Assembly: GCA_965219575.1 (NCBI GenBank) | Contig: OZ244779.1 | Coordinates: 876,769 to 940,768, forward strand | Length of the DNA: 64,000 nucleotides | Source of the DNA: Candidatus Oxydemutatoraceae bacterium | GTDB taxonomy: Bacteria; Pseudomonadota; Gammaproteobacteria; Poriferisulfidales; Oxydemutatoraceae | Reading direction: 5' to 3' | In this document: positions 7,084 through 44,100 of the stretch, in pieces | Layout: every line of letters begins with the position of its first letter | Numbering within the stretch: position 1 is the first letter of the stretch | The notes under the pieces: model-generated | What the model was told of the DNA's origin: nothing | Databases searched by the model: none | Seen by the model: the letters and a program-made list of their open reading frames with translations, nothing else | Program-made: the position numbers and the translations under genes

Positions 7084-8058
7084 TCAACAATAATTCGTGT
7101 CAAACGGTTGCTTGTGCGTGGTGACCCCGTAAATAATACGCGTGAGCTTATGCGCGCAAGCAACAATAATCTGCTTTTTAGTTAACTCCGGACGGCGGCG
7201 ACTTAATTGGTCGGCAAATGCACGGATGGTTGGGTTATGAACCCGTGCCGAGAGTGCTGCCATAAATAGGAGGGTGCGCAGGTCGGCATTGCCCTGTTTA
7301 GAGATGGGCGTGGGCGATGCGCAGTTGCCGGATTGCTTGTGCTTGGGCGTGATGCCGATATAGGCGGCGAGTTGCTTTGGATGGCGAAACGTATTATCAT
7401 CCAGTACTGCACACAGGGCAGCCGCAGTTTGAGTTCCGATTCCAGGAATGGAACACAGCAACTGGTGAAGCTGTGTGAGGTGCTCGTCTTGAGCGATGAT
7501 TTTGTCCATTGAGGCATTAATCTTATCGATCTGCTTCTCATGGTTCTTCAGGCTAGTGGCTGCCACCTTTTTTTGCTTCGCATCGCGCAGAGTTTTAGCG
7601 CAATTGCTTAACATCGTATGACACTTGACTAATTCCCTACGCCATTTCAGTGCGTCGCGCAAGGCTTGCACAGCCGGTGAGGGCTTTTGCCAATTGTTTT
7701 CAGGCGGGATAGCAAATACGAAGCGTGCGATGATACGCGCATCCACGCGATCGGTTTTACTGCGTATGCCGAGCGAGTCGCGGAATCTAGAGATCAGCAC
7801 CGGTACTGCAACGGTGATTGGATGCCCGGCATCATAGCCGGCCATGCACAGGTCTAGTTCAAGACCGCCGGTCGCCTCAACGCAGATGCGACACTGCTGT
7901 GCGCAGTGTTTGCTCGCCCAAGCTAACAACTGCTTGATGCCTTGGGCATCACTACTAAATTGTTGTTCGGCAAAACTATTATCGGTGAATAGTATAGCCG
8001 CCTCTAAAGTGTCTTTAGAGACATCAACGCCAATCGTGACGGGTTGTTTGTTTTCCAT
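7084..8058 (-). CDS. IS110-family recombinase/transposase
   Basis: RuvC-like DEDD residues D12 (IGVD), E61 (VEATG), D103/D106 (KTDRVD). Tnp domain SIPGIG...LAAYIG...QSG with Ser243. Confidence 0.96.
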   Translation of the reverse strand: MENKQPVTIGVDVSKDTLEAAILFTDNSFAEQQFSSDAQGIKQLLAWASKHCAQQCRICVEATGGLELDLCMAGYDAGHPITVAVPVLISRFRDSLGIRSKTDRVDARIIARFVFAIPPENNWQKPSPAVQALRDALKWRRELVKCHTMLSNCAKTLRDAKQKKVAATSLKNHEKQIDKINASMDKIIAQDEHLTQLHQLLCSIPGIGTQTAAALCAVLDDNTFRHPKQLAAYIGITPKHKQSGNCASPTPISKQGNADLRTLLFMAALSARVHNPTIRAFADQLSRRRPELTKKQIIVACAHKLTRIIYGVTTHKQPFDTNYC

Positions 8059-20035: not shown

Positions 20036-20127
20036 GCCGATTGACCTACTGGCTCAATCGGCGGCTTTGTATTGCCGATTGACCTACAAGCTCAATCGGC
20101 GGCTTTGTATTGCCGATTGACCTACTG
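20036..20127. repeat. Palindromic repeat cluster (about 2.5 copies, 38-bp period)
   Basis: Reverse orientation of the 613-677 array. The third partial copy includes the CAG TAG end of the giant gene. Confidence 0.88.
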
Positions 20128-23100
20128 AAGGAGACCCTCTAAAAATACTCTGACCTGTATTCTGATAACTGAAGTCAATGGGGTATAAACCTGCGCCGGT
20201 GAATAGACTATCTCTCTATAACCTTGTTCGTCGGTATAGCTTGCTTCGGCACGGAAGCTGTTGCCCCTTACTAAAATCTCGGAACCCGATACGATTAAAT
20301 ACGGTGTTGTCATTGCGCCCACAATATCGTTCCAGTTCCCTTTTACCGAGCAATCTACATTCACCGAGCAGACTTGCCATTGATACATCACAGCCTCACT
20401 GGGATCACCGTCGGGGTCGCTGCTCAGTATCGCTGCCGTGAGTGTCGTCGCATCGTTTCCTGTCCCTACCAAGACACCTATAGTGATAGCACCGTTATTT
20501 ACCTTATTCACCACCACCGAGGTCATCCCTATCGTAGTCGTCGTCCCGTCGCTTATCACGATTTTTATGTTCACCGTCGTGTCGCTAGATACCGCATCTA
20601 CGAAGTTGGGCGGAACAATCAAGGTTACCGTCGCTGAGGTTGCATCGTTTAATGTCCCGGTATTTGTGCGCCAGCTATAAGTCAAGTCATCGTAGTTCGG
20701 GTCGCTCGCAGTCACAACGACAGTGATGTTTTGTGTCGCAGTTGTCTCGTCTATCGTCTGCGGGTCGGTGATGCTCACAATCACCGGGCTTTCGTTGGCA
20801 ACCGTATAGACATTGGATTGCGTCGTCACCGATTGACCGATATTATCTACAACCGTTGCCTCCAGCCTATAGCGTGTGCCGGCGGTTCGCGACGCACGAT
20901 TGTCGGGGATGCGATATGCATTCTCGGTTGCACCGTCTATCAAAATGTCGTTGATGAACCAACGATAGCTGGTCGTCGCAATCCCGTTGGCATCGTCTAG
21001 ACCACTTGCACGCAACAACCATCTATCATTAACGACCGTTGCGATGCGTAGCGCAGTCGGTGGCGCATCTATCAGTAGTGTGAAGGTTGTCTGCGCACTG
21101 CCACCTCTGCCGTCATCCGCCAACACCGTCACAATCGAGCCTGCCGTGTTTCGGCTGGCATCGGCATCGGTTGCCGTGAAGGTCCATACACCGGTCATAG
21201 TGCTGAAGCCGTCAATCAAGCCACTCATCGGTGCTATTGCGATATTGTATGTCAATGTATCGCCGTCGGCATCCATAAAGAACTCACTAACATCTCGTTC
21301 AAACGGCACACCGACCGTTGCGATAACTCGGGTCGGTACCCGATCGCTAAGTATCGGCGAAGTATTGACTGCTACTTCCAAAGTACGACTACTGCTTAAA
21401 TCTGCGCTGTCGGTTGCGGTAAAGGTAATCGTTGCCATACCACTTTGCAAAGCGTTTAGCATAAAAGTTCTAGCCGTATTGTCGGTTATGCCGGTAATTT
21501 GAATCGGCATCACCGACACGATAGTTCGGCTCGACGACATTGCCGTCAATATAACAACATCGTTCAAATTGAAGTTGCTGTCCGCAACCGAGACGACGAT
21601 ATGCGCCGTGCTATTGAGCGGTAGCGTCTGCGCAGTGGAAGGTGTCAGTGTAATTATCGGTGGGGTGTTCGCTTCCACCTGCACCGCAAATTGTGCCGAG
21701 ACCTGCGAGTTTGCTACACCTCTGCCGTCGTTCACCGTCACCGTAATCGTCGTATTGCCGGCACCGACACCGACAATCTCAAGCGTGCGCATGATTCCAT
21801 TGCCACTGGCATTGACCGTTGCAATCTGCGTGTCATTGGACTCAACTGCTATCGTCAGTATATCGTCGGCATTGGCATCGCCTAGTGTCACATCTATCGA
21901 AGTATTCATACCTTCCAATAGCCTGAGCGGTTGCTCGGGAATACCGCTCAGCGTCGGTGGTGCGTTGACACGCACCGACAAGGAGGCACTGTCGCTTAGC
22001 CCGTTGCTGTCCTTCGCAATGAAAGTCACCGTTGCCACACCATCTTGCTCGGCATCCAGCACGAAGCGCATACTCCTATCGGTCGTTATATCGGTAACTT
22101 GCATCGGCATCACCGACACAATAGTTCGGCTTGACGACATTGCCGTCAATATAACAACATCGTTCAAATTGAAGTTGCTGTCCGCAACCGAGACGACGAT
22201 ATGCGCCGTGCTATTGAGCGGTAGCGTCTGCGCAGTGGAAGGTGTCAGTGTAATTATCGGTGGGGTGTTCGCTTCCACCTGCACCGCAAATTGTGCCGAG
22301 ACCTGCGAGTTTGCTACACCTCTGCCGTCGTTCACCGTCACCGTAATCGTCGTATTGCCGGCACCGACACCGACAATCTCAAGCGTGCGCATGATTCCAT
22401 TGCCACTGGCATTGACCGTTGCAATCTGCGTGTCATTGGACTCAACTGCTATCGTCAGTATATCGTCGGCATTGGCATCGCCTAGTGTCACATCTATCGA
22501 AGTATTCATACCTTCCAATAGCCTGAGCGGTTGCTCGGGAATACCGCTCAGCGTCGGTGGTGCGTTGACACGCACCGACAAGGAGGCACTGTCGCTTAGC
22601 CCGTTGCTGTCCTTCGCAATGAAAGTCACCGTTGCCACACCATCTTGCTCGGCATCCAGCACGAAGCGCATACTCCTATCGGTCGTTATATCGGTAACTT
22701 GCATCGGCATCACTGATACGATGGTTCGGCTTGACGACATTGCCGTCAATGTAACAACATCGTTCAAATTGAAGTTGCTGTCCGCAACTGAGACGACGAT
22801 ATGCGCCGTGCTATCGAGCGGTAGTGTCTGCATTGTTGACGGTGTCAGTGTAATCATCGGTGCGATGTTTGCTTCCACCTGCACCGCAAATTGTGCCGAG
22901 ACCTGCGAGTTTGTTGCACCTCTGCCGTCGTTCACCGTCACCGTAATCGTCGTATTGCCGGCACCGACACCGACAATCTCAAGCGTGCGGACGGCTCCAC
23001 TACCACTGGCATTGACCGTTGCAATCTGCGTGTCATTGGACTCAACTGCTATCGTCAGGGTATCATCGGCATTGGCATCGCCTAGTGTCACATCTATCGA

Positions 23101-26100
23101 AGTATTCATACCTTCCAATAGCCTGACCGGTTGCTCGGGAATACCGCTCAGCGTCGGTGGTGCGTTGACACGCACCGACAAAGCCGCACTGTCGCTTAGC
23201 CCGTTACTATCCTTCGCAATGAAAGTCACCGTTGCCACACCACTTCGCTCGGCACTCAGTACGAAGCGTATACTCATATCGGTCGTTATATCGGCAACTT
23301 GCATCGGCACCACCGACACAATGGTTCGGCTCGACGACATTGCCGTCAATGTAACAACATCGTTCAAATTGAAGTTGCTGTCCGCAACCGAGACGACGAT
23401 ATGCGCCGTGCTATCGAGCGGTAGTGTCTGCATTGTTGACGGTGTCAGTGTAATCGTCGGTGCGATGTTCGCTTCCACCTGCACCGCAAATTGTGCCGAG
23501 ACCTGCGAGTTTGTTGCACCTCTGCCGTCGTTGACCGTCACTGTAATTGTCGTATTGCCGGCACCGACACCGACAATCTCAAGCGTGCGCATGGTTCCAT
23601 TGCCACTGGCATTGACCGTTGCAATCTGCATGTCACTGGACTCAACCGCTATCGTTAGGGTATCGTCGGCATTGGCATCGCCCAGCGTCACATTTATCGA
23701 GGTATTCATACCTTCCAGCAGTCTGAGCGGTTGCTCGGGAATACCCTGCAGTGTCGGTGGTGCATTGACACGCACCGACAAGTCGGCACTGTGGCTTAGC
23801 CCGTTGCTGTCTTCTGCGGTAAAGGTAATCGTTGCCACACCACCTTGCAGTGCATTTAGCGTAAAGGTATTAGCCGTATTATCGGTTATGTCGGTAATCG
23901 TCGTCGGCGATGTCACAGACACAATCGTTTCATTCGATGACATTGCCGTCAATGTGATGTTGTCATTATCGCCATAATTACTATCGACTACCGAGACGAC
24001 GATATTAGCCGTGCTATTGAGCGGTAGCGTTTGCGCGGTTGAGGGTGTCAGCGTAATCGTCGGGTCGGTGTTTGCTTCCACCTGCACCGCAAATTGTGCC
24101 GAGACCTGCGAGTTTGTTGCACCTCTGCCGTCGTTGATCGTCACCGTAATTGTCGTATTGCCGGCACCGACACCGACAATCTCAAGCGTGCGCATAATTC
24201 CGTTGCTACTGGCATTGACCGTTGCAATCAATGTATCATTGGATTCAACTGCTATCGTCAGGGTATCGTCGGCATTGGCATCGCCCAGCGTCACATTTAT
24301 CGAGGTATTCATACCTTCCAGCAGTCTGAGCGGTTGCTCGGGAATACCGCTGAGTGTCGGTGGTGCATTGACACGTACCGACAGGGCGGCACTATGGCTT
24401 AGCCCGTTGCTGTCTTCTGCGGTAAAGGTAATCGTTGCCACACCACCTTGCAGTGCATTTAGCGTAAAGGTATTAGCCGTATCATCGGTTATGTCGGTAA
24501 TCGTCGTCGGCGATGTCACCGACACAATCGTTCGGCTTGATGACATTGCCGTCAGTGTAACAACATCGTTCAAATTGAAATTACCATCCGCGACCGAGAC
24601 GATGATATGCGCCGTGCTATCGAGCGGTAGCGTCTGTGGGGTTGAGGGTATCAATGTAATCATCGGCGCGATGTTCGCTTCCACCTGCACCGCAAATTGT
24701 GCCGAGACCTGCGAGTTTGTCGCACCTCTGCCGTCGTTCACCGACACCGTAATCGTCGTATTGCCGGCACCGATGCCGACAATCTCAAGTGTGCGCATGG
24801 TTCCGTCGCCACTGGCATTGACCGTTGCAATCTGCGTATCGCTGGATTCAACTGCTATCGTCAGGGTATCGTCGGCATTGGCATCGCCTAGTGTCACATC
24901 TATCGAAGTATTCATACCTTCCAGCAGTCTGAGCGGTTGCTCGGGAATACCGCTGAGTGTCGGCGGTGCATTGGCACGCACCGACAGGGCGGCACTGTGG
25001 CTTAGCCCGTTGTTGTCTTGTGCGGTAAAGGTAATCGTTGCCACACCACCTTGCAGTGCATTTAGCGTAAAGGTATTAGCCGTATCATCGGTTATGTCGG
25101 TAATCGTCGTCGGCGATGTCACCGACACAATCGTTTCATTCGATGACATTGCCGTCAATGTGATATTGTCATTATCGCCATAATTACTATCGACTACCGA
25201 GACGACGATATGCGCCGTGCTATTGAGCGGTAGCGTTTGCATTGTTGCAGGTGTCAATGTAATCATCGGTGCGATGTTCGCTTGCACCTGCACCGCAAAT
25301 TGTGCCGAGACCTGCGAGTTCGCTACACCTCTGCCGTCGTTGACCGTCACCGTAATCGTCGTATTGCCGGCACCAATGCCGACAATCTCAAGCGTGCGGG
25401 TAGCTCCGCTGCCACTGGCATTGACCGTTGCAATCAATGTATCATTGGATTCAACTGCTATCGTCAGGGTATCGTCGGCATTGGCATCGTCCAGCGTCAC
25501 ATTTATCGAGGTATTCATACCTTCCAGCAGTCTGAGCGGTTGCTCGGGAATACCCTGCAGTGTCGGTGGTGCATTGACACGCATCGACAAGTCGGCACTG
25601 TGGCTTAGCCCGTTGCTGTCTTCTGCGGTAAAGGTAATCGTTGCCACACCACCTTGCAGTGCATTTAGCGTAAAGGTGTTAGCCGTATTATCGGTTATGT
25701 CGGTAATCGTCGTCGGCGATGTCACCGACACAATGGTTCGGCTCGACGACACGGCCGTCAATGTAACAACATCGTTCAAATTGAAGTTGCTGTCCGCAAC
25801 CGAGATGACAATACCAGTCGTGCTATTGATCGCTAGCGTCTGCGCGGTTGAGGGTGTCAGTGTAATCGTCGGTGCGATGTTCGCTTCCACCTGCACCGCA
25901 AATTGTGCCGAGACCTGCGAGTTCGCCACACCTCTGCCGTCGTTCACCGACACCGTGATCGTCGTATTGCCGGCACCGACACCGACAATCTCAAGCGTGC
26001 GCATGGTTCCGTTGCCACTGGCACTGACCATTGCAACCTGCGTGTCATTGGACTCAACTGCTATCGTCAGTATATCGTCGGCATTGGCATCGCCTAGTGT

Positions 26101-29100
26101 CACATCTATCGAAGTATTCATACCTTCCAATAGCCTGACCGGTTGCTCGGGAATACCGCTCAGCGTCGGTGGTGCGTTGACACGCACCGACAAAGCCGCA
26201 CTGTCGCTTAGCCCGTTACTATCCTTCGCGATGAAAGTCACCGTTGCCACACCACTTCGCTCGGCACTCAGTACGAAGCGTATACTCATATCGGTCGTTA
26301 TATTGTCAACTTGCATCGGCACCACCGACACAATGGTTCGGCTCGACGACATGGCCGTCAATGTAACAACATCGTTCAAATTGAAATTACTATCCGCGAC
26401 CGAGACGATGATATTAGCCGTGCTATTGAGCGGTAGCGTCCGTGCGGTTGAGGGTGTCAATGTAATCGTCGGTGCGATGTTCGCTTTTACCTGCATCGCA
26501 AATTGTGCCGAGACTTGCGAGTTCGCTATACCTCTGCCGTCGTTCACCGCCACCGTAATCGTCGTATTGCCGGCACCGACCCCGACAATCTCAAGCGTGC
26601 GCATGGTTCCGTTGCCACTGGCATTGACCGTTGCAATCTGCGTATCGCTGGATTCAACTGCTATCGTCAGGGTATCGTCGGCATTGGCATCGGCTAGCGT
26701 CAATCTCAATTCGGTATTCATACCTTCCAACAGCCTGAGCGGTTGCTCGGGAATACCGCTCAGCGTCGGCGGTGCATTGGCACGCACCGACAGGACGGCA
26801 CTATGGCTTAGCCCGTTGCTGTCCTTCGCAATGAAAGTCACCGTTGCCACACCATCTTGCTCGGCATCCAGCACGAAGCGTATACGCGTATCGGTCGTTA
26901 TATCGGCAACTTGTATCGGCACCACCGACACGATGGTTCGGCTCGACGACATTGCCGTCAATGTGACGCGATCACCGTTAACATAATTACTATCTGCGAC
27001 CAAGACGACGATATTAGCCGTGCTATTGAGCGGTAGCGTTTGCGCTGTTGCAGGTGTTAGTGTAATCATCGGCGCGATGTTCGCTTGCACCTGTACCGCA
27101 AATTGTGCCGAAACTTGTGAGTTTGTCGCACCTCTGTCGTCGTTGACCGACACCGTAATCGTCGTATTGCCGGCACCGACACCGACAATCTCAAGCGTGC
27201 GCATGATTCCATTGCCACTGGCATTGACCGTTGCAATCTGCGTATCATTGGATTCAACCGCTATCGTCGGTATATCGTCGGCATTGGCATCGCCCAGCGT
27301 CACATCTATCGAAGTATTCATACCTTCCAATAGCTTGACCGGTTGCTCGGGAATATCGCTCAGCGTCGGCGGTGCATTGACACGCACCGACAGGGCGGCA
27401 CTGTGGCTTAGCCCGTTGCTGTCCTGTGCGGTAAAGGTAATCGTTGCTACACCATCTTGCTCGGCATCCAGCACGAAGCGTATACGCGTATCGGTCGTTA
27501 TATCGGCAACTTGTATCGGCACCACCGACACGATGGTTCGGCTCGACGACATTGCCGTCAATGTGACGCGATCACCGTTAACATAATTACTATCTGCGAC
27601 TGAGACGACGATATTAACCGTGCTATTGAGCGGTAGCGTTTGCGCTGTTGCAGGTGTTAGTGTAATCATCGGCGCGATGTTCGCTTGCACCTGTACCGCA
27701 AATTGTGCCGAAACTTGTGAGTTTGTCGCACCTCTGTCGTCGTTGACCGACACCGTAATCGTCGTATTGCCGGCACCGACACCGACAATCTCAAGCGTGC
27801 GCATGATTCCATTGCCACTGGCATTGACCGTTGCAATCTGCGTGTCATTGGACTCAACTGCTATCGTCAGTATATCGTCGGCATTGGCATCGCCTAGTGT
27901 CACATCTATCGAAGTATTCATACCTTCCAGCAGTCTGAGCGGTTGCTCGGGAATATCGCTCAGCGTCGGCGGTGCGTTGACACGCACCGACAGGTCGGCA
28001 CTGTGGCTTAGCCCGTTGCTGTCGGTTGCGGTGAAGGTAATCGTTGCCACACCACCTTGCAGTGCATTTAGCGTAAAGGTGTTAGCCGTATCATCGGTTA
28101 TATCGGTAATCGTCGTCGGCGATGTCACCAACACAATCGTTTCATTCGATGACATTGCCGTCAATGTAACAACATCGTTCAAATTGAAATTACTATCCGC
28201 GATCGAGACGACGATATGCGCCGTGCTGTTGAGCGGTAATGTTTGCATTGTTGCAGGTGTCAATGTAATCATCGGTGCGATGTTCGCTTCCACCTGCACC
28301 GCAAATTGTGCCGAGACTTGCGAGTTCGCTATACCTCTGCCGTCGTTCACCGACACCGTAATCGTCGTATTGCCGGCACCGACACCGACAATCTCAAGCG
28401 TGCGCATGATTCCATTGCCACTGGCATTGACCGTTGCAATCTGCGTGTCATTGGACTCAACTGCTATCGTCAGTATATCGTCGGCATTGGCATCGCCTAG
28501 TGTCACATCTATCGAAGTATTCATACCTTCCAATAGTTTGAGCGGTTGCTCGGGAATACCGCTCAGCGTCGGTGGTGCGTTGACACGCACCGACAGGGAG
28601 GCACTGTCGCTTAGCCCGTTGCTGTCCTTCGCAATGAAAGTCACCGTTGCCACACCATCTTGCTCGGCATCCAGCACGAAGCGCATACTCCTATCGGTCG
28701 TTATATCGGCAACTTGTATCGGCACCACCGACACGATGGTTCGGCTCGACGACATTGCCGTCAATATAACAACATCGTTCAAATTGAAATTACCATCTGC
28801 GACCGAGACAACGATATGCGCCGTGCTATTGATCGCTAGCGTCTGCGCGGTGGAGGGTGTCAATGTAATCGTCGGTGCGATGTTCGCTTGCACCTGTACC
28901 GCAAATTGTGCCGAGACCTGCGAGTTTGCTACACCTCTGCCGTCGTTCACCGACACCGTAATCGTCGTATTGCCGGCACCGGCACCGACAATTTCAAGCG
29001 TGCGCACGGCTCCGCTGCCACTGGCATTGACCGTTGCAATCTGCGTATCGCTGGATTCAACTGCTATCGTCAGGGTATCGTCGGCATTGGCATCGCCTAG

Positions 29101-32100
29101 TGTCACATCTATCGAAGTATTCATACCTTCCAATAGCTTGACCGGTTGCCCGGGAATACCGCTCAGCGTCGGTGGTGCGTTGACACGCACCGACAAAGCC
29201 GCACTGTGGCTTAGCCCGTTGTTGTCGGTTGCGGTAAAGGTAATCGTTGCCACACCACCTTGCAGTGCATTTAGCGTAAAGATGTTAGCCGTATTATCGG
29301 TTATATCGGTAATCGTCGTCGGCGATGTCACCGACACAATCGCTTCATTCGATGACATTGCCGTCAATGTGACGCGATCACCGTCGCCGTAATTACTATC
29401 TGCGACCGAGACGACAATATTAACCGTGCTATTGAGCGGTAGCGTTTGCGCTGTTGCAGGTGTTAGTGTAATCGTCGGTGCGATGTTCGCTTCTACCTGC
29501 ACCGCAAATTGTGCCGAGACCTGCGAGTTTGTCGCATCTCTGCCGTCGTTGACCGTCACCGTAATCGTCGTATTGCCGGCACCGACGCCGACAATCTCAA
29601 GCGTGCGCATGGCTCTGTTGCCACTGGCATTGACCGTTGCAATCTGTGTGTCGCTGGATTCAACCGCTATCGTTAGGGTATCGTCGGCATTGGCATCGCC
29701 CAGCGTCACATCTATCGAAGTATTCATACCTTCCAATAGCTTGACCGGTTGCTCGGGAATACTGCTCAGCGTCGGCGGTGCATTGGCACGCACCGACAAA
29801 GCCGCACTATGGCTTAGTCCGTTGTTGTCCTGTGCAGTAAAGGTAATCGTTGCCACACCACCTTGCTTGGCATCCAGCACGAAGTGCATACTCGTGTCGG
29901 TCGTTATATCGGCAACTTGTATAGGCACCACCGACACGATGGTTCGGCTCGACGACATGGCCGTCAGTGTGACGCGATCACTGTTAACATAATTACTATC
30001 CGCGACCGAGACAACGATATGCGCCGTGCTATTGAGCGGTAGCGTTTGCGCTGTTGCAGGTGTTAGTGTAATCATCGGCGCGATGTTCGCTTGCACCTGC
30101 ACTGCAAATTGTGCCGAGACCTGCGAGTTCGCTACACCTCTGCCGTCGTTGACCGTCACCGTAATCGTCGTATTGCCGGCACCGATGCCGACAATCTCAA
30201 GTGTGCGCATGATTCCGTTGCCACTGGCATTGACCGTTGCGATCTGCGTATCGCTGGATTCAACTGCTACCGTTAGGGTATCGTCGGCATTGGCATCGCC
30301 AAGCATCACATTTATCGAAGTATTCATACCTTCCAGCAGTTTGAGCGGTTGCTCGGGAATACCGCTCAGCGTCGGTGGTGCGTTGACACGCACCGACAAG
30401 GAGGCACTGTCGCTTAGCCCGTTGCTGTCCTTCGCAATGAAAGTCACCGTTGCCACACCCTCTTGCTCGGCATCCAGCACGAAGCGTATACGCGTATCGG
30501 TCGTTATATCGGCAACATGTATCGGCACCACCGACACGATGGTTCGGCTCGACGACATTGCCGTCAATGTGACGCGATCACCGTCGCCGTAATTACTATC
30601 TGCGACCAAGACGACGATATGCGTCGTACTATCGAGCGGTAGCGTCTGTGGAGTTGAGGGTGTCAATGTAATCATCGGTGCGATGTTCGCTTGCACCTGT
30701 ACCGCAAATTGTGCCGAGACCTGCGAGTTTGCTACACCTCTGCCGTCGTTCACCGACACCGTAATCGTCGTATTGCCGGCACCGGCACCGACAATTTCAA
30801 GCGTGCGCATGATTCCGTTGCCACTGGCATTGACCGTTGCAATTTGCGTATCGCTGGATTCAACTGCTATCGTCAGGGTATCGTCGGCATTGGCATCGCC
30901 TAGTGTCACATCTATCGAAGTATTCATACCTTCCAATAGCTTGACCGGTTGCTCGGGAATACCGCTGAGCGTCGGTGGTGCATTGGCACGCACCGACAAA
31001 GCCACACTGTGGCTTAGTCCGTTGTTGTCGGTTGCAGTAAAGGTAATCGTTGCCACACCACCTTGCAGTGCACTTAGCGTAAAGATGTTAGCCGTATCAT
31101 CGGTTATATCGGTAATCGTCGTCGGCGATGTCACCGACACAATCGCTTCATTCGATGACATTGCCGTCAATGTGACGCGATCACCGTCGCCGTAATTACT
31201 ATCTGCGACCGAGACGACAATATTAACCGTGCTATTGAGCGGTAGCGTTTGCGCTGTTGCAGGTGTTAGTGTAATCGTCGGTGCGATGTTCGCTTCTACC
31301 TGCACCGCAAATTGTGCCGAGACCTGCGAGTTTGTCGCATCTCTGCCGTCGTTGACCGTCACCGTAATCGTCGTATTGCCGGCACCGACGCCGACAATCT
31401 CAAGCGTGCGCATGGCTCTGTTGCCACTGGCATTGACCGTTGCAATCTGTGTGTCGCTGGATTCAACCGCTATCGTTAGGGTATCGTCGGCATTGGCATC
31501 GCCCAGCGTCACATCTATCGAAGTATTCATACCCTCCAGTAGTCTGAGCGGTTGCTCGGGAACACCTTGCAGCGTCGGCGGTGCATTGGCACGCACCGAC
31601 AAAGCCGCACTATGGCTTAGTCCGTTGTTGTCCTCTGCAGTAAAGGTAATCGTTGCCACACCACCTTGCTTGGCATCCAGCACGAAGTGCATACTCGTGT
31701 CGGTCGTTATATCGGCAACTTGTATAGGCACCACCGACACGATGGTTCGGCTCGACGACATGGCCGTCAGTGTGACGCGATCACTGTTAACATAATTACT
31801 ATCCGCGACCGAGACAACGATATGCGCCGTGCTATTGAGCGGTAGCGTTTGCGCTGTTGCAGGTGTTAGTGTAATCATCGGCGCGATGTTCGCTTGCACC
31901 TGCACTGCAAATTGTGCCGAGACCTGCGAGTTCGCTACACCTCTGCCGTCGTTGACCGTCACCGTAATCGTCGTATTGCCGGCACCGATGCCGACAATCT
32001 CAAGTGTGCGCATGATTCCGTTGCCACTGGCATTGACCGTTGCGATCTGCGTATCGCTGGATTCAACTGCTACCGTTAGGGTATCGTCGGCATTGGCATC

Positions 32101-35100
32101 GCCAAGCATCACATTTATCGAAGTATTCATACCTTCCAGCAGTTTGAGCGGTTGCTCGGGAATACCGCTCAGCGTCGGTGGTGCGTTGACACGCACCGAC
32201 AAGGAGGCACTGTCGCTTAGCCCGTTGCTGTCCTTCGCAATGAAAGTCACCGTTGCCACACCCTCTTGCTCGGCATCCAGCACGAAGCGTATACGCGTAT
32301 CGGTCGTTATATCGGCAACATGTATCGGCACCACCGACACGATGGTTCGGCTCGACGACATTGCCGTCAATGTGACGCGATCACCGTCGCCGTAATTACT
32401 ATCTGCGACCAAGACGACGATATGCGTCGTACTATCGAGCGGTAGCGTCTGTGGAGTTGAGGGTGTCAATGTAATCATCGGTGCGATGTTCGCTTGCACC
32501 TGTACCGCAAATTGTGCCGAGACCTGCGAGTTTGCTACACCTCTGCCGTCGTTCACCGACACCGTAATCGTCGTATTGCCGGCACCGGCACCGACAATTT
32601 CAAGCGTGCGCATGATTCCGTTGCCACTGGCATTGACCGTTGCAATTTGCGTATCGCTGGATTCAACTGCTATCGTCAGGGTATCGTCGGCATTGGCATC
32701 GCCCAGCGTCACATCTATCGAAGTATTCATACCTTCCAGTAGTCTGAGCGGTTGCTCGGGAATACCGCTGAGCGTCGGTGGTGCATTGGCACGCACCGAC
32801 AAAGCCACACTGTGGCTTAGTCCGTTGTTGTCGGTTGCAGTAAAGGTAATCGTTGCCACACCACCTTGCAGTGCACTTAGCGTAAAGGTATTAGCCGTAT
32901 CATCGGTTATATCGGTAATCGTCGTCGGCGATGTCACCGACACAATGGTTCGGTTCGATGACACGGCCGTCAATGTAACAACATCGTTCAAATTGAAATT
33001 ACTATCCGCGACCGAGACGACAATATTAACCGTGCTATTGAGCGGTAGCGTTTGCGCTGTTGCAGGTGTTAGTGTAATCGTCGGTGCGATGTTCGCTTCT
33101 ACCTGCACCGCAAATTGTGCCGAGACCTGCGAGTTTGTCGCATCTCTGCCGTCGTTGACCGTCACCGTAATCGTCGTATTGCCGGCACCGACGCCGACAA
33201 TCTCAAGCGTGCGCATGGTTCCGTTGCCACTGGCATTGACCGTTGCAATCTGCATGTCACTGGATTCAACTGCTATCGTTAGGGTATCGTCGGCATTGGC
33301 ATCGCCAAGCATCACATTTATCGAAGTATTCATACCCTCCAGTAGTCTGAGCGGTTGCTCGGGAACACCTTGCAGCGTCGGCGGTGCATTGGCACGCACC
33401 GACAAGTCGGCACTGTGGCTTAGTCCGTTGTTGTCCTCTGCGGTAAAGGTAATCGTTGCCACACCACTTTGCAGTGCATTTAGCGTAAAGGTGTTAGCCG
33501 TATCATCGGTTATATCGGTAATCGTCGTCGGCGATGTCACCGACACAATCGTTTCATTCGATGACATTGCCGTCAATGTAACACGATCACCGTTAACATA
33601 ATTACTATCCGCGACCGAGACGACGATATGCGCCGTGCTGTTGAGCGGTAATGTTTGCATTGTTGCAGGTGTCAGCGTAATCGTCGGTGCGATGTTCGCT
33701 TCTACCTGCACCGCAAATTGTGCCGAGACCTGCGAGTTTGCTACACCTCTGCCGTCGTTGACCGTCACCGTAATCGTCGTATTGCCGGCACCGATGCCGA
33801 CAATCTCAAGCGTGCGCATGGTTCCGTCGCCACTGGCATTGACCGTTGCAATCTGCGTATCGCTGGATTCAACTGCTATCGTCAGGGTATCGTCGGCATT
33901 GGCATCGGCTAGCGTCAATCTCAATTCGGTATTCATACCTTCCAATAGACTAACCGGTTGCTCGGGAATACCGCTCAGCGTCGGTGGTGCATTGGCACGC
34001 ACCGACAAAGCCGCACTGTGGCTTAGTCCGTTGTTGTCTTCTGCGGTAAAGGTAATCGTTGCCACACCACTTTGCAGTGCATTTAGCGTAAAGGTGTTAG
34101 CCGTATCATCGGTTATATCGGTAATCGTCGTCGGCGATGTCACCGACACAATCGTTTCATTCGATGACATTGCCGTCAATGTGACACTATCACCTCTACT
34201 ATAGTTATTATCTGCGACCGAGACGACGATATGCGTTGTGCTATTGAGCGGTAGCGTCTGCGCGGTGGAAGGTGTCAGTGTAATCGTCGGGTCGGTGTTT
34301 GCTTCTACCTGCACCGCAAATTGTGCCGAGACCTGCGAGTTTGCTACACCTCTGCCATCGTTCACCGTCACCGTAATCGTCGTATTGCCGGCACCGACCC
34401 CGACAATCTCAAGCGTGCGCATGGTTCCGTTGCCACTGGCATTGACCGTTGCAATCTGCGTATCGCTGGATTCAACTGCTATCGTCAGGGTATCGTCGGC
34501 ATTGGCATCGGCTAGCGTCAATCTCAATTCGGTATTCATACCTTCCAATAGACTAACCGGTTGCTCGGGAATACCGCTCAGCGTCGGTGGTGCATTGGCA
34601 CGCACCGACAAAGCCGCACTGTGGCTCAGCCCGTTGTTGTCGGTTGCGGTAAAGGTAATCGTTGCCACACCACCTTGTTCGGCATCCAGCACGAAGCGTA
34701 TACGCGTATCGGTCGTTATATCGGTAACTTGCATCGGCATCACCGACACAATGGTTCGGTTCGATGACACGGCCGTCAATGTAACAACATCGTTCAAATT
34801 GAAATTACTATCCGCGACCGAGACGACGATATTAGCCGTGCTATTGAGCGGTAATGTTTGCATTGTTGACGGTGTCAATGTAATCATCGGTGCGATGTTC
34901 GCTTCTACCTGCACCGCAAATTGTGCCGAGACCTGCGAGTTTGCTACACCTCTGCCGTCGTTGACCGTCACCGTAATCGTCGTATTGCCGGCACCGACCC
35001 CGACAATCTCAAGCGTGCGCATGGTTCCGTTGCTACTGGCATTGACCGTTGCAATCTGCATGTCACTGGATTCAACCGCTATCGTTGGTATATCGTCGGC

Positions 35101-38100
35101 ATTGGCATCGGCTATCGCCAATCTCAATTCGGTATTCATACCTTCCAATAGACTAACCGGTTGCTCGGGAATACCGCTCAGCGTCGGTGGTGCATTGGCA
35201 CGCACCGACAAAGCCGCACTGTGGCTCAGCCCGTTGTTGTCCTCTGCGGTAAAGGTAATCGTTGCCACACCACCTTGTTCGGCATCCAGCACGAAGCGTA
35301 TACGCGTATCGGTCGTTATATCGTCAACTTGCATCGGCACCACCGACACAATGGTTCGGCTCGACGACATGGCCGTCAATGTAACAACATCGTTCAAATT
35401 GAAATTACTATCCGCGACCGAGACGACGATATTAGCCGTGCTATTGAGCGGTAGCGTCCGTGCGGTTGAGGGTGTCAATGTAATCGTCGGTGCGATGTTC
35501 GCTTGCACCTGTACCGCAAATCGTGCCGAGACTTGTGAGTTTGCTACACCTCTGCCGTCGTTGACTGTCACCGTAATCGTCGTATTGCCGGCACCGACCC
35601 CGACAATCTCAAGCATGCGCACGGCTCCGCTACCACTGGCATTGACCGTTGCGATCTGCGTATCATTGGATTCAACCGCTATCGTCGGTATATCGTCGGC
35701 ATTGGCATCGCCCAGCGTCACATTTATCGAAGTATTCATACCTTCCAGTAGTCTGAGCGGTTGCTCGGGAATACCGCTGAGTGTCGGCGGTGCGTTGACA
35801 CGCACCGACAAAACCGCACTGTGGCTTAGCCCGTTGCTATCCTGTGCGGTAAAGGTAATCGTTGCCACACCACCTTGCAGTGCATTTAGCGTAAAGGTAT
35901 TAGCCGTATCATCGATTATGTCGGTAATCGTCGTCGGCGATGTCACCGACACAATCGTTTCATTCGACGATATTGCCGTCAATGTGACGCAATCACCGTC
36001 GCCGTAATTACTATCTGCGACCAAGACGACGATATGCGCTGTACTATCGAGCGGTAGTGTCTGCATTGTTGACGGTGTCAATGTAATCATCGGCGCGATG
36101 TTCGCTTCCACTTGCACCGCAAATTGTGCCGAGACCTGCGAGTTCGCTACACCTCTGCCGTCGTTGACCGTCACTGTAATCGTCGTATTGCCGGCACCAA
36201 TGCCGACAATCTCAAGCGTGCGGATGGCTCCACTGCCACTGGCATTGACCATTGCAATCTGCGTGTCATTGGACTCAACTGCTATCGTCAGTATATCGTC
36301 GGCATTGGCATCGCCTAGTGTCACATTTATCGAAGTATTCATACCTTCCAGTAGTCTGAGCGGTTGCTCGGGAATACCGCTGAGCGTCGGTGGTGCATTG
36401 GCACGCACCGACAGGGCGGCACTGTGGCTTAGCCCGTTGCTGTCTTCTGCGGTAAAGGTAATCGTTGCCACACCACCTTGCTTGGCATCCAGCACGAAGT
36501 GCATACTCGTGTCGGTCGTTATATCGGCAACTTGTATAGGCACCACCGACACGATGGTTCGGCTCGACGACATTGCCGTCAATATAACAACATCGTTCAA
36601 ATTGAAGTTGCTGTCCGCAACCGAAACGACGATATTAGCCGTGCTATCGAGCGGTAATGTTTGCGCTGTTGCAGGTGTCAATGTAATCGTCGGTGCGATG
36701 TTCGCTTGCACCTGTACCGCAAATTGTGCCGAGACCTGCGAGTTCGCTACACCTCTGCCGTCGTTCACCGCCACCGTAATCGTTGTATTGCCGGCACCGA
36801 CACCGACAATCTCAAGCGTGCGCACGGCACCGGTGCCACTGGCATTGACCGTTGCAACCTGCGTGTCATTGGACTCAACTGCTATCGTCAAGGTATCGTC
36901 GGCATTGGCATCGGCTATCGTCAATTCCAATTCGGTATTCATACCTTCCAATAGCCTGACCGGTTGCTCGGGAATATCGTTCAGCGCCGGTGATGCGTTG
37001 ACACGCACCGACAAAGCCGCACTGTGGCTTAGCCCGTTGTTGTCCGCTGCGGTAAAGGTAATCATTGCCACACCACCTTGTTCGGCATCCAGCACGAAGC
37101 GTATACTCGTATCGGTCGTTATATCGGCAACTCGCATCGGTATCACCGACACAGTGGTTCGGCTCGACGACATGGCCGTCAGTGTGACGCGATCACTGTT
37201 AACATAATTACTATCCGCGACCGAGACAACGATATGCGCCGTGCTATTGAGCGGTAGCGTTTGCGCTGTTGCAGGTGTTAGTGTAATCATCGGCGCGATG
37301 TTCGCTTGCACCTGCACTGCAAATTGTGCCGAGACCTGCGAGTTCGCTACACCTCTGCCGTCGTTGACCGTCACCGTAATCGTCGTATTGCCGGCACCGA
37401 TGCCGACAATCTCAAGTGTGCGCATGATTCCGTTGCCACTGGCATTGACCGTTGCGATCTGCGTATCGCTGGATTCAACTGCTACCGTTAGGGTATCGTC
37501 GGCATTGGCATCGCCAAGCATCACATTTATCGAAGTATTCATACCTTCCAGTAGTCTGAGCGGTTGCTGGGGAATACCCTGCAGCGTCGGCGGTGCATTG
37601 GCACGCACCGACAAGTCGACACTGTGGCTTAGCCCGTTGCTGTCCTGTGCGGTAAAGGTAATCGTTGCCACACCATCTTGCTTGGCATCCAGCACGAAGC
37701 GCATACTCCTATCGGTCGTTATATTGTCAACTTGTATCGGCACCACCGACACGATGGTTCGGCTCGACGACATTGCCGTCAATGTGATATTGTCATTATC
37801 GCCATAATTACTATCGACTACCGAGACGACGATATGCGCCGTGCTGTTGAGCGGTAATGTTTGCGCTGTTGCAGGTGTCAATGTAATCATCGGTGCAATG
37901 TTCGCTTGCACCTGCACCGCAAATTGTGCCGAGACCTGCGAGTTTGCTACACCTCTGCCGTCGTTGACCGTCACCGTAATTGTCGTATTGCCGGCACCGA
38001 CACCGACAATCTCAAGCGTGCGCATGGTTCCGTTGCCACTGGCATTGACCGTTGCAATCTGCGTATCGCTGGATTCAACTGCTATCGTCAGGGTATCGTC

Positions 38101-41100
38101 GGCATTGGCATCGGCTAGCGTCACATTTATCGAAGTATTCATACCTTCCAGTAGTCTGAGCGGTTGCTCGGGAATACTGCTGAGCGTCGGTGGTGCATTG
38201 GCACGCACCGACAAGTCGGCACTGTGGCTTAGCCCGTTGTTGTCCTCTGCGGTAAAGGTAATCGTTGCCACACCACCTTGCAGTGCATTTAGCGTAAAGG
38301 TATTAGCCGTATCATCGGTTATATCGGTAATCGTCGTCGGCGATGTCACCGACACAATCGTTTCATTCGATGACATTGCCGTCAATGTGATATTGTCATT
38401 ATCGCCATAATTACTATCGACTACCGAGACGACGATATGCGCCGTGCTATTGAGCGGTAGCGTTTGCATTGTTGCAGGTGTCAATGTAATCATCGGTGCG
38501 ATGTTCGCTTGCACCTGCACCGCAAATTGTGCCGAGACCTGCGAGTTCGCTACACCTCTGCCGTCGTTCACCGACACTGTAATCGTCGTATTGCCGGCAC
38601 CGACACCGACAATCTCAAGCGTGCGGGTAGCTCCGCTGCCACTGGCATTGACCGTTGCAATCAATGTATCATTGGATTCAACTGCTATCGTCAGGGTATC
38701 GTCGGCATTGGCATCGCCCAGCGTCACATTTATCGAAGTATTCATACCTTCCAGTAGTCTGAGCGGTTGCTCAGGAATACCCTGCAGCGTCGGTGGTGCA
38801 TTGGCACGCACCGACAGGGCGGCACTATAGCTTAGCCCGTTGCTGTCCTGTGCGGTAAAGATAATCGTTGCCACACCACCTTGTTCGGCATCCAGCACGA
38901 AGCGTATACTCGTATCGGTCGTTATATCGGCAACTCGCATCGGTATCACCGACACAGTGGTTCGGCTTGACGACATTGCCGTCAATGTAACAACATCGTT
39001 CAAATTGAAATTACCATCCGCGACCGAGACGATGATATGCGCCGTGCTGTTGAGCGGTAGCGTCTGTGCGGTTGCAGGTGTCAATGTAATCATCGGTGCG
39101 ATGTTCGCTTGCACCTGTATCGCAAATCGTGCCGAGACCTGCGAGTTTGTTGCACCTCTGCCGTCGTTGACCGTCACCGTAATCATCGTATTACCGGCAC
39201 CGATACCGACAATTTCAAGCGTGCGCACGGCACCAGTGGTTGCGATAATCGTTGCGCTTGCAATCCTGCTGTCGTCGATGTCGACGCTTATATCAAGGGT
39301 ATCGTCGGCATTGGCATCGGCTATCGTCAATTCCAATTCGGTATTCATACCCTCCAACAGACTAACCGGTTGCTCGGGAATATCGCTCAGCGTCGGCGGT
39401 GCGTTGACACGCACCGACAGGTCGGCACTGTGGCTTAGCCCGTTGTTGTCCTCTGCGGTAAAGGTAATCGTTGCCACACCACCTTGTTCGGCATCCAGCA
39501 CGAAGCGTATACTCGTATCGGTCATTATATCGTCAACTTGTATCGGCATCACCGACACAATGGTTCGGTTCGATGACACGGCCGTCAATGTAACAACATC
39601 GTTCAAATTGAAATTACTATCCGCGACCGAGACGACGATATGCGCCGTGCTATTGAGCGGTAGCGTCTGCATTGTTGCAGGTGTCAATGTAATCATCGGT
39701 GCGATGTTCGCTTGCACCCGTACCGCAAATTGTGCCGAAACCTGCGAGTTCGCTACACCTCTGCCGTCGTTGACCGTCACCGTAATCGTCGTATTGCCGG
39801 CACCGACCCCGACAATCTCAAGCGTGCGCATGGTTCCGTCGCCACTGGCATTGACCGTTGCAATCTGCGTGTCACTGGACTCAACCGCTATCGTCAGGGT
39901 ATCGTCAGCATTGGCATCGGCTAGTGTCACATCTATCGAAGTATTCATACCTTCCAATAGTTTGAGCGGTTGCTCGGGAATATCGCTCAGCGTCGGCGGT
40001 GCATTGGCACGCACCGACAGGGCCACACTGTGGCTTAGCCCGTTGCTGTCTTCTGCGGTAAAGGTAATCGTTGCCACACCACCTTGCAGTGCATTTAGCG
40101 TAAAGGTGTTAGCCGTATCATCGGTTATATCGGTAATCGTCGTCGGCGATGTCACCGACACAATCGTTTCATTCGACGATATTGCCGTCAATGTGATGTT
40201 GTCATTATCGCCATAGTTACTATCGACTACCGAGACGACGATATTAGCCGTGCTATTGAGCGGTAATGTTTGCATTGTTGCAGGTGTCAATGTAATCATC
40301 GGTGCGATGTTCGCTTGCACCTGCACCGCAAATTGTGCCGAAACCTGCGAGTTCGCTACACCTCTGCCGTCGTTCACCGTCACCGTAATAGTCGTATTGC
40401 CGGCACCGACACCGACAATCTCAAGCGTGCGCACGGCACTGGTGCCACTGGCATTGGCCGTTGCAACCTGCGTATTATTGGATTCAACCACTATCGTCAA
40501 TGTATCGTCGGCATTGGCATCGGCTAGCGTCACATTTATCGAAGTATTCATACCTTCCAGTAGTCTGAGCGGTTGTTCGGGAATACCGCTCAGCGTCGGC
40601 GGTGCATTGGCACGCACCGACAGGGCCACACTGTGGCTTAGCCCGTTGCTGTCTTCTGCGGTAAAGGTAATCGTTGCCACACCACCTTGCAGTGCATTTA
40701 GCGTAAAGGTGTTAGCCGTATCATCGGTTATATCGGTAATCGTCGTCGGCGATGTCACCGACACAATCGTTTCATTCGACGATATTGCCGTCAATGTGAT
40801 GTTGTCATTATCGCCATAGTTACTATCTGCGACCGAAACGACAATACCAGTCGTACTATTGATCGCTAGCGTCTGCGCTGTTGTGGGTGTCAATGTAATC
40901 ATCGGTGCGATGTTCGCTTGCACCTGCACCGCAAATTGTGCCGAGACCTGCGAGTTTGCTACACCTCTGCCGTCGTTGACCGTCACCGTAATCGTCGTAT
41001 TGCCGGCACCGACACCGACAATCTCAAGCGTGCGCACGGCACCAGTGCCACTGGCATTGGCCGTTGCAACCTGCGTATTATTGGATTCAACCACTATCGT

Positions 41101-44100
41101 CAATGTATCGTCGGCATTGGCATCGGCTATCGTCAATTCCAATTCGGTATTCATACCTTCCAATAGACTAACCGGTTGTTCGGGAATACCGCTCAGCGTC
41201 GGCGGTGCATTGGCACGCACCGACAGGGCGGCACTGTGGCTTAGCCCGTTGCTGTCTTCTGCGGTAAAGGTAATCGTTGCCACACCACCTTGCAGTGCAT
41301 TTAGCGTAAAGGTGTTAGCCGTATCATCGGTTATATCGGTAATCGTCGTCGGCGATGTCACCGACACAATCGTTTCATTCGACGATATTGCCGTCAATAT
41401 AACAACATCGTTCAAATTGAAATTACTATCTGCGACCGAAACGACGACATGCGCCGTGCTATTGAGCGGTAATGTTTGCGCTGTTGCAGGTATCAATGTA
41501 ATCGTCGGTGCGATGTTCGCTTCTACTTGCACCGCAAATTGTGTCGAGACCTGCGAGTTTGCTACACCTCTGCCGTCGTTGACCGTCACCGTAATCGTCG
41601 TATTGCCGGCACCGACCCCGACAATCTCAAGCGTGCGCATGGTTCCGTTGCCACTGGCATTGACCGTTGCAATCTGCATGTCACTGGACTCAACCGCTAT
41701 CGTTAGAGTATCGTCGGCATTGGCATCGGCTATCGTCAATTCCAATTCAGTATTCATACCCTCCAATAGACTAACCGGTTGCTCGGGAATACCGCTGAGT
41801 GTCGGTGGTGCATTGGCACGCACCGACAAAGCCGCACTATGGCTTAGTCCGTTGTTGTCTTCTGCGGTAAAGATAATCGTTGCCACACCATCTTGTTCGG
41901 CATCCAGCACGAAGCGTATACTCGTATCGGTCGTTATATCGTCAACTTGCATCGGCACCACCGACACAATGGTTCGGCTCGACGACATGGCCGTCAATAT
42001 AACAACATCGTTCAAATTGAAATTACCATCTGCGACCGAGACGACGATATTAGCCGTGCTATTGAGTGGTAGCGTCTGTGCGGTTGAGGGTGTCAGTGTA
42101 ATCGCCGGGTCGGTGTTCGCTTCCACCTGCACCGCAAATTGTGCCGAGACCTGCGAGTTTGCTACACCTCTGCCGTCGTTGACCGACACCGTAATCGTCG
42201 TATTGCCGGCACCGACACCGACAATCTCAAGCGTGCGCATGGTTCCGTTGCTACTGGCATTGACCGTTGCAATCTGCGTATCGCTGGATTCAACTGCTAT
42301 CGTCAGGGTATCGTCGGCATTGGCATCGCCCAGCGTCACATTTATCGAAGTATTCATACCTTCCAGTAGTCTGAGCGGTTGCTCGGGAATACCCTGCAGC
42401 GTCGGCGGTGCATTGGCACGCACCGACAGGGCGGCACTGTGGCTTAGCCTTCTGCTGTCCTCTGCGGTAAAGGTAATCGTTGCCACACCACCTTGTTCGG
42501 CACTTAACACAAAGCGTATACTCGTATCGGTCGTTATATCGGTAACTTGCATCGGCACCACCGACACAATGGTTCGGCTCGACGACACGGCCGTCAATGT
42601 GACACTATCACCTCTACTATAGTTATTATCTGCGACCGAGACGACGATATGCGTTGTGCTATTGAGCAGTAGCGTCTGCGCGGTGGAAGGTGTCAGTGTA
42701 ATCGTCGGGTCGGTGTTTGCTTCTACCTGCACCGCAAATTGTGCCGAGACCTGCGAGTTTGCTACACCTCTGCCGTCGTTCACCGTCACCGTAATCGTCG
42801 TATTGCCGGCACCGACCCCGACAATCTCAAGCGTGCGCATGGTTCCGTTGCCACTGGCATTGACCGTTGCAATCTGCGTATCGCTGGATTCAATTGCTAT
42901 CGTCAGGGTATCGTCGGCATTGGCATCGGCTAGCGTCAATCTCAATTCGGTATTCATACCTTCCAATAGACTAACCGGTTGCTCGGGAATACCCTGCAGC
43001 GTCGGTGGTGCATTGGCACGCACCGACAGGTCAGCACTGTGGCTTAGCCTTCTGCTGTCGGTTGCGGTGAAGGTAATTGTTGCCACACCACCTTGTTCGG
43101 CATCCAGCACAAAGCGCATACTCGTATCGGTCGTTATATCGGTAACTTGCATCGGCATCACCGACACAATAGTTCGGCTTGACGACATGGCCGTCAATGT
43201 AACAACATCGTTCAAATTGAAATTACCATCTGCGACCGAGACGACGATATGCGTTGTGCTATTGAGCGGTAGCGTCTGCGCGGTGGAGGGTGTCAGTGTA
43301 ATCGTCGGGTCGGTGTTTGCTTCTACCTGCACCGCAAATTGTGCCGAGACCTGCGAGTTCGCTACACCTCTGCCGTCGTTGACCGTCACCGTAATCGTCG
43401 TATTGCCGGCACCGACCCCGACAATCTCAAGCGTGCGCATGGTTCCGTTGTCACTGGCATTGACCGTTGCAATCTGCATGTCACTGGACTCAACCGCTAT
43501 CGTTAGAGTATCGTCGGCATTGGCATCGGCTATCGTCAATTCCAATTCGGTATTCATACTTTCCAGTAGTCTGAGCGGTTGCTGGGGAATACCGCTGAGC
43601 GTCGGCGGTGCATTGGCACGCACCGACAAGTCGACACTGTGGCTTAGCCCGTTGCTGTCGTCTGCGGTAAAGGTAATCGTTGCCACACCACTTTGCAGTG
43701 CATTTAGCGTAAAGGTGTTAGCCGTATCGGTCGTTATATCGGCAACTTGCACCGGCATCACCGACACAATAGTTCGGCTTGACGACATGGCCGTCAATGT
43801 AACAACATCGTTCAAATTGAAATTACCATCTGCGACCGAGACGACGATATGCGTTGTGCTATTGAGCGGTAGCGTCTGCGCGGTGGAGGGTGTCAGCGTA
43901 ATCGTCGGGTCGGTGTTTGCTTCTACCTGCACCGCAAATTGTGCCGAGACCTGCGAGTTTGCTACACCTCTGCCGTCGTTGACCGTCACCGTAATCGTCG
44001 TATTGCCGGCACCGACACCGACAATCTCAAGCGTGCGAATGATTCCGTTGCCACTGGCATTGACCGTTGCAATCTGCGTATCGCTGGATTCAACTGCTAT

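Follow-up and report, generated by a model that had tools for sequence, protein, structure and literature searches.

A domain that lacks a strand can be completed by a peptide of another chain, as in chaperone-usher donor-strand complementation and in the SpyTag/SpyCatcher pair; chaperone-usher pili donate an N-terminal extension between like subunits, and SpyTag is engineered and acts covalently. In type II cohesin/X-module-dockerin (XDoc) anchoring, a C-terminal XDoc attaches a large protein to a cohesin anchored on the cell, cohesin being the known dockerin ligand; in a solved XDoc, the seven X-module strands form sheets 1-4-7 and 2-3-5-6, and the module stabilizes the calcium loops of the dockerin (PMC5141474, in the accessible part of the paper). 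The PilC/PilY1 plug, according to the accessible sections of the sources, is a C-terminal peptide of 10-12 residues that fixes a large adhesin to its partner at the surface; it does so by contributing a beta-strand, and it stabilizes the partner (10.64898/2026.09.18.752573; PMC13711793). In Vibrio, GlyGly-CTERM, rhombosortase and type II secretion place a protein on the cell surface (PMC6219818, in its accessible part).

We analyzed a stretch of 64,000 nucleotides, hereafter the window, from a source genome of 2.37 Mb in one contig (G000). The window encodes a giant protein and the C-terminal part of a neighboring paralogue (Table 1). Their ends, SVIRIQVRVFLEGLLQ and stop on the minus strand (20122-20172) for the giant and EVIRIRAKVFLEGPLQ and stop (58763-58813) for the paralogue, read as an earlier note on this DNA had given them. 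That note had also described the domains ahead of the shared terminal motif as much more diverged. This holds for the last domain, identical in 41 of 133 columns as against 10 of 14 positions of the tail, but not for the preceding ~420 residues, which are 50-53% identical. The ORF list shows antisense ORFs recurring every ~600 bp along the stalk region of the giant. Elsewhere in the window, an IS110-family transposase gene (7084-8058, minus strand) lies amid the housekeeping genes leuA, cysG, leuB, asd, fimV, truA and that of aspartokinase (Pfam), and two ORFs of 171-179 residues on the plus strand (37-576 and 1335-1850) had no Pfam match.

Table 1. Features of the window proteins and of the strand-less adaptors; plain coordinates are those of the window, and those prefixed G000:C1 are those of the source genome.
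Feature	Coordinates	Strand	Content or basis
14-residue tail IRIQVRVFLEGLLQ and stop, giant	20122..20166	-	Homologue of XDoc beta-strand 1 by profile alignment; proposed donor strand
Giant passenger, 12,744 aa	20122..58356	-	Signal peptide, GLUG-motif modules, Ig-like stalk, tail; Pfam Glug, Big_9, Big_2
Probable Sec signal peptide of giant	58252..58323	-	From Met at residue 12, end ...PVFA/Q; sequence reading and hydrophobicity heuristic
Stalk of giant, ~200-aa tandem Ig-like units	20900..48000 (limits approximate)	-	Repeat units, Big_9/Big_2
14-residue tail IRIRAKVFLEGPLQ and stop, neighboring paralogue	58763..58807	-	Sequence reading, pattern census
Neighboring paralogue, C-terminal 1,745 codons	58763..64000	-	Start outside window; 3,073 aa stop to stop in genome
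End of internal duplicate of the paralogue's last domain, without tail	60690..60745	-	Sequence comparison
Adaptor A	G000:C1 2246056-2246934 (outside window)		Signal peptide, X-module without strand 1, dockerin
Adaptor B	G000:C1 2216875-2217765 (outside window)		Signal peptide, X-module without strand 1, dockerin

The last 40 residues of both window proteins gave no match to Pfam or NCBIfam models at E ≤ 1, in keeping with the view of the earlier note that the motif corresponds to no recognized sorting signal. The tail has no motif, membrane helix or basic cluster of the tripartite signals (LPXTG, PEP-CTERM, GlyGly-CTERM). The C-terminal domain of type IX secretion is a folded unit of ~70-80 residues; here the conserved unit comprises just 14, and no model matched the last 40 or 100 residues. 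A BAM beta-signal closes an outer-membrane barrel as its last strand and ends in an aromatic residue, whereas most tails have LQ at the end and come after Ig-like or cadherin-like repeats instead of a barrel. The PilC family had no match on the window proteins scanned.

A seven-position tail pattern was run against the 12,592 ORFs of at least 60 residues in the source genome. It gave 58 matches, 53 of them within 8 residues of a stop and five internal, and in 46 terminal tails the pattern lay exactly two residues ahead of the stop; ten shuffled controls yielded 0-2 matches in total and none at a terminus. The motif is thus not confined to the two paralogues but is found at 53 ORF ends. All 22 ORFs of at least 2,000 residues bear it, and the tail-bearing ORFs, of 77 to 16,069 residues, add up to 498 kb, or 21% of the genome. 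The tail occurs behind many unrelated domain types. By a simple hydrophobicity score, 46 of the 53 ORFs have a signal-peptide-like start, and the other seven look like fragments. Three large tail-bearing frames without such a start (G000:C1 945482-952861, 1162122-1170986 and 1800636-1810586) are probably frameshifted pieces of longer genes.

The motif had been described as specific to the terminus. It is indeed absent from the internal duplicate that ends near 60,691, but four of the five internal matches appear to be real (G000:C1 1796419-1800540, 1308319-1313601, 1918093-1923450 and 371091-374015). They occur in secreted proteins, one immediately behind the signal peptide, and are easier to reconcile with a docking strand than with an export signal tied to one position. 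The fifth was discarded as a chance match, lying in an ORF that we took, by eye, to be RpoC. Among the 53 tails, the most conserved of the basic positions is Lys in 37 and Arg in 16; EG is present in all, but the pattern itself required it. The codons vary synonymously while the residues stay constant (Glu is GAA in 32 tails and GAG in 21, and all four Gly codons are used), and on this ground we rejected a DNA repeat as the origin of the tail.

A domain of Bacteroidota opens with a tail-like strand, and we searched the source genome with its later motifs. Two ORFs carried them, adaptors A and B, each with a signal peptide and each lacking the strand. In distant homologues, the strand lies ~50 residues ahead of the core. 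The tail profile aligned to residues 20-33 of an intact homologue (probability 93.5, E 2.2e-7) and the adaptor profile to the same homologue from residue 37 to its end (probability 100, E 3.8e-55), and comparison of the tail and adaptor profiles with each other gave nothing (0.13). The two profiles tile the intact domain exactly. On these alignments, the tail is the homologue of strand 1 of an X-module-dockerin domain. No strand was present in any of the 58 adaptors with a recognizable core, one further row of the 59 having no core match. Two regular-expression matches among the adaptors fell in a signal-peptide segment and in a non-strand segment, neither being the strand, and the adaptors do not hold all strands of an XDoc on one polypeptide. 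Adaptor B matched Dockerin_1 (PF00404; 33.5 bits, cut-off 22.9). The dockerin of adaptor A had no Pfam match, and its first calcium-binding loop is degenerate; a sequence search of adaptor A against the PDB gave weak matches (best E 0.26).

The intact homologue P0040 was modelled at pLDDT 95 from 60 sequences. The ten best Foldseek ranks for the model were all X-module-dockerin structures, and VIA gave Z scores of 11.3 (rmsd 3.4, 147 aligned) and 10.5, the next being 5.5. For P0040, the intact domain is thus predicted to be an X-module-dockerin, with a seven-stranded X-module followed by a two-F-hand dockerin. The adaptors are assigned to this fold through an alignment that covers all of P0040 except strand 1. 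In the model, strand 1 spans residues 21-26, so that the tail corresponds to one beta-strand, as the earlier note had supposed from its alternating residues. Strand 1 sits mid-sheet in the X-module fold. Pfam and NCBIfam give the intact domain no name, and an Atlas search returned unnamed clusters only (best 0.91). XDoc-like domains of the intact kind are common at the C-termini of proteins from Bacteroidota, Chlorobiota and Ignavibacteria (2,184 representatives at E ≤ 0.001), with 17-28 strand matches in four of five genomes.

The gene that follows the adaptor starts with a shared head of ~200-250 residues at all 20 loci examined. Both adaptor genes of the source genome precede a gene with such a cohesin-like head, and the fold was modelled for one, a protein of 1,474 residues. 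Its head was modelled with moderate confidence (pLDDT 65, pTM 0.68); Foldseek ranks 1-12 and VIA rows 1-19 were all cohesins, with a best Z of 10.3 (rmsd 3.0, 137 aligned) and 6.5 for the first non-cohesin. This head is therefore predicted to have the jelly-roll cohesin fold. Pfam Cohesin (PF00963) matched neither four heads nor anything in five genomes. Two further head matches in the source genome lie at the start of a giant of 4,610 residues and inside one of 7,914 residues, both ending in a tail.

The C-terminus of the 1,474-residue protein consists of a Gly run, a hydrophobic stretch and a basic cluster. This GlyGly-type end scored below the NCBIfam cut-offs (best MprA_tail, 11.4 bits against 19.7), and a rhombosortase gene follows directly (TIGR03902, 143.5 bits, cut-off 84). 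As the end is of the GlyGly type and a rhombosortase gene adjoins, we propose that the protein is held at the cell surface. Coordinates gave the order adaptor, head-bearing protein, rhombosortase in G000 and in six relatives (G001, G002, G003, G004, G006 and G010). A second GlyGly-type protein of the source genome (G000:C1 960306-963353; 1,015 aa) had no match to the cohesin-like head profile. Contigs of RNA run X1 cover adaptor A and its scaffold, but the run had itself been retrieved by means of this region, and contigs cannot give an expression level, so we do not count it as support; run X7 has none over either.

From the homology, the exact tiling, the predicted folds, the gene order and the co-distribution described below, we infer that the tail completes the adaptor by strand donation and that the dockerin of the adaptor binds a surface-anchored cohesin, a reading to which we give a probability of about 0.78. 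An XDoc would have been split between two genes, the passengers keeping only beta-strand 1. Passengers would be exported by Sec, and probably by type II secretion, with the strand free. The secreted adaptor would take this strand into its empty slot to form a complete XDoc, whose dockerin would bind the cohesin-fold head of the protein encoded next door. The 1,474-residue scaffold, through its GlyGly-type anchor, would root the assembly at the cell surface, so that one or a few adaptors could clip dozens of passengers there, and proteins with both head and tail would add branches. The suggestion of an export or anchoring tag, such as a strand donated to a surface partner, gains support in that the candidate partner is a secreted X-dockerin lacking exactly that strand and presumed to bind it. 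This candidate is nevertheless a soluble adaptor, not the outer-membrane protein or protease envisaged, and the tag also occurs internally. The system is probably a split X-dockerin tag-and-adaptor device for surface display; neither it nor the tail is described in the mostly open-access literature searched.

The distribution of the two parts was examined in 19 genomes of the family, i.e., the source genome and 18 relatives. Tails and adaptor occur together in 16 of the 19: adaptor-sized matches were found in 15 relatives, and tails in the same 15 plus G016. As these genomes are kin, the pattern is no statistical test, and the co-occurrences do not count as independent events. The strict tail pattern gave 4 to 217 matches in the nine relatives where it fits well, the highest number being in the 2.5-Mb genome of G006, which has one adaptor match. 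The same genome holds arrays of small secreted proteins, each with a near-identical terminal tail (L043-L045). The first patterns gave nothing in genus g5 and missed the tails of genus g2, both of which were found with variant patterns. Genus g2 tails end differently, and variant tails were present at 7 of 10 sites in G010, 7 of 10 in G013 and 1 of 7 in G009. For genus g5, the variant LGGA in place of LEGP was predicted from the one intact domain of the genus (LLGGA), and each of the three g5 genomes then proved to have ORFs that end in such a tail.

Four relatives count against the proposed strand donation to a cohesin-bound adaptor. G009 has an adaptor, yet only one tail was found in it. G016 (85% complete, 230 contigs) has tails, and no adaptor was found in it. 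G011 (97% complete) has the cohesin-like head and rhombosortase but neither tail nor adaptor. In G005 (100% complete), 25 domain matches lie in frames of 687-17,496 residues, and all 15 that were inspected are intact. No tail was found there (16 of 23 other loose-pattern sites were translated, none being a tail), and this pairing of intact domains with no tail speaks for the split. What counts against the reading in G005 is that three queries revealed no cohesin, so that the XDoc there may have another partner or role. One XDoc of this genome (G005:C1, in a frame of 687 residues) lies right behind a signal peptide. The type II secretion genes of G005 are followed directly by rhombosortase.

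Several relatives show other arrangements of the parts. Tandem units of G001, G003 and G004 (L066-L068, L071, L072) consist of a long tail-ending protein and, 15-30 bases later, an adaptor gene; the halves thus follow one another as in the unsplit domain, separated by a stop and a signal peptide. In G015 (L250, L254), a protein carries a strand-like segment repeated inside it every ~220 residues as well as a terminal tail. A three-gene run of G012 (L224 5411-10407) encodes a strand-less adaptor, a 650-residue protein with head and intact XDoc, and a 624-residue protein with head and GlyGly-type anchor, an arrangement that resembles the adaptor scaffoldin of cellulosomes. Also in G012, five occurrences of LEGAYP-stop that first looked like tails were rejected: the one that was translated is no tail, and no frame ending in a tail came from any of the five.

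At 76 loci of the genome collection, taken from the best 80 of 501 matches, all 77 domains outside this lineage keep the strand (74 by pattern and three by eye), while seven of eight domains from records titled 'uncultured candidatus Porisulfidus sp.' lack it. Candidatus Porisulfidus lives in sponges. The 22 genomes from other families of the order had no adaptor and no rhombosortase above the cut-off. None of 399 class-level genomes outside the family had more than one tail match, and 15 had one, similar to the reversed-pattern control. In five Bacteroidota genomes, the 33 strand sites (30 of 88 matches) were 31 full domains, one truncated copy and one unrelated protein, with no orphan tail among them. 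A loose tail pattern was uninformative, its controls being as high as its matches, and a scan of a metagenome collection gave one match, in no plausible gene.

A transient role in export is an unlikely alternative: type II secretion would recognize the tail-completed XDoc as a pilot, and the passengers would be released or held otherwise. It accords with the distribution of gspD, which scores above the cut-off in 18 family genomes, matches partially in the remaining one and lies 8-17 kb from an adaptor gene in seven, and with G005, where secretion genes, rhombosortase and 25 XDoc-bearing proteins occur and no cohesin was found. It does not account for the cohesin-like head gene that follows the adaptor in 20 of 20 loci, given that cohesin is the dockerin ligand in the accessible part of PMC5141474.

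We consider it quite improbable that the tail is read by an unrelated factor, such as a translocon in the outer membrane, a protease, or a minor pilin like the partner of the PilC plug, and that the strand-less proteins are independent of it. Short C-terminal strands do dock by strand augmentation in the PilC plug, as described in the accessible sections of 10.64898/2026.09.18.752573 and PMC13711793; the family has several secretins, and G016 has tails with no adaptor found. However, an unrelated reader gives no reason why tail and adaptor tile exactly, why the domain is intact in G005 and in all 77 cases outside the lineage (best 80 of 501), or why the g5 variant is common to the tails and the intact domain of that genus.

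Covalent joining, by a CnaB-type isopeptide bond as in SpyTag/SpyCatcher or by cleavage and transpeptidation, seems slightly less probable again. A CnaB2 domain does appear low in the fold list (Z 4.0), and EG is invariant in the 53 tails of the source genome, albeit as a requirement of the pattern. The CnaB isopeptide pair has a fixed lysine on its first strand; with Arg at the basic position in 16 of 53 tails no lysine is fixed here, and the Glu of the tail is replaced by Gly in genus g5 and by Gln in G009 and G005, which makes a covalent link unlikely. In addition, no protease but rhombosortase appeared in the loci examined, and the tail offers it no membrane helix to cut. The least probable reading takes the tail for a remnant of domain loss that has no function, or for the strand that ends the passenger's own final domain. 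It is largely refuted by the tail's presence behind many unrelated domain types in ORFs of 77 to 16,069 residues, by the synonymous codon changes and by the paralogue's internal duplicate of its last domain, which has no tail.

Should tail donation to a cohesin-docked adaptor be correct, it would represent a sorting logic absent among known bacterial C-terminal signals, with no sortase acting on the passenger. A 14-residue strand would stand in for a docking domain of ~200 residues on tens to hundreds of proteins. This would explain how secreted proteins that take up a fifth of a small genome, some of more than 15,000 residues, are displayed, and it would bring cohesin-dockerin anchoring to a bacterium with an outer membrane and link it there to rhombosortase and type II secretion. 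With split and unsplit states in one family, the domain fission is directly testable, and the tail/adaptor pair is a candidate peptide-tag tool. A more elaborate version, which we regard as evenly poised between true and false, is that fission of an XDoc gave a natural, genome-wide, enzyme-free tag-and-catcher with genus-specific tag dialects. Proteins with head and tail, namely the giants of 4,610 and 7,914 residues and the tandem adaptor-scaffold units of the genus, would be linked by the adaptor into surface fibers, branched or head-to-tail, on one GlyGly-anchored base, and G005 would represent the unsplit state in the family.

The closest relatives of this proposed system are the cellulosomal scaffoldins (CipA/ScaA and CipB of C. 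thermocellum and ScaA of A. cellulolyticus; PDB 2b59, 5g5d, 3kcp, 4u3s), which share the predicted X-module, dockerin and cohesin folds and the docking logic; identity to the solved chains is only 9-16%. In contrast to the cellulosomal XDoc, the domain here is split, with strand 1 on the passenger and the remainder secreted separately as the adaptor. The bacterium has an outer membrane, a GlyGly-type anchor and a rhombosortase, and the passengers are repeat-rich, adhesin-like proteins and not cellulases. The PilC/PilY1 plug is alike in its terminal strand but, in the accessible sections of its sources, serves one adhesin family and a minor pilin, whereas the tag here is carried by unrelated proteins, from tens to about 200 in a genome, and would act through a dedicated adaptor, and the intact ancestral domain survives in relatives. 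Compared with chaperone-usher pili and SpyTag, the split is natural and probably non-covalent, and many passengers would share one adaptor. The likeness to GlyGly-CTERM/rhombosortase, as far as the accessible part of PMC6219818 describes that system, lies in the anchor of the scaffold, with its Gly run, hydrophobic stretch and basic cluster near rhombosortase and type II secretion genes; the tail, which has neither hydrophobic helix nor basic end, is no such signal.
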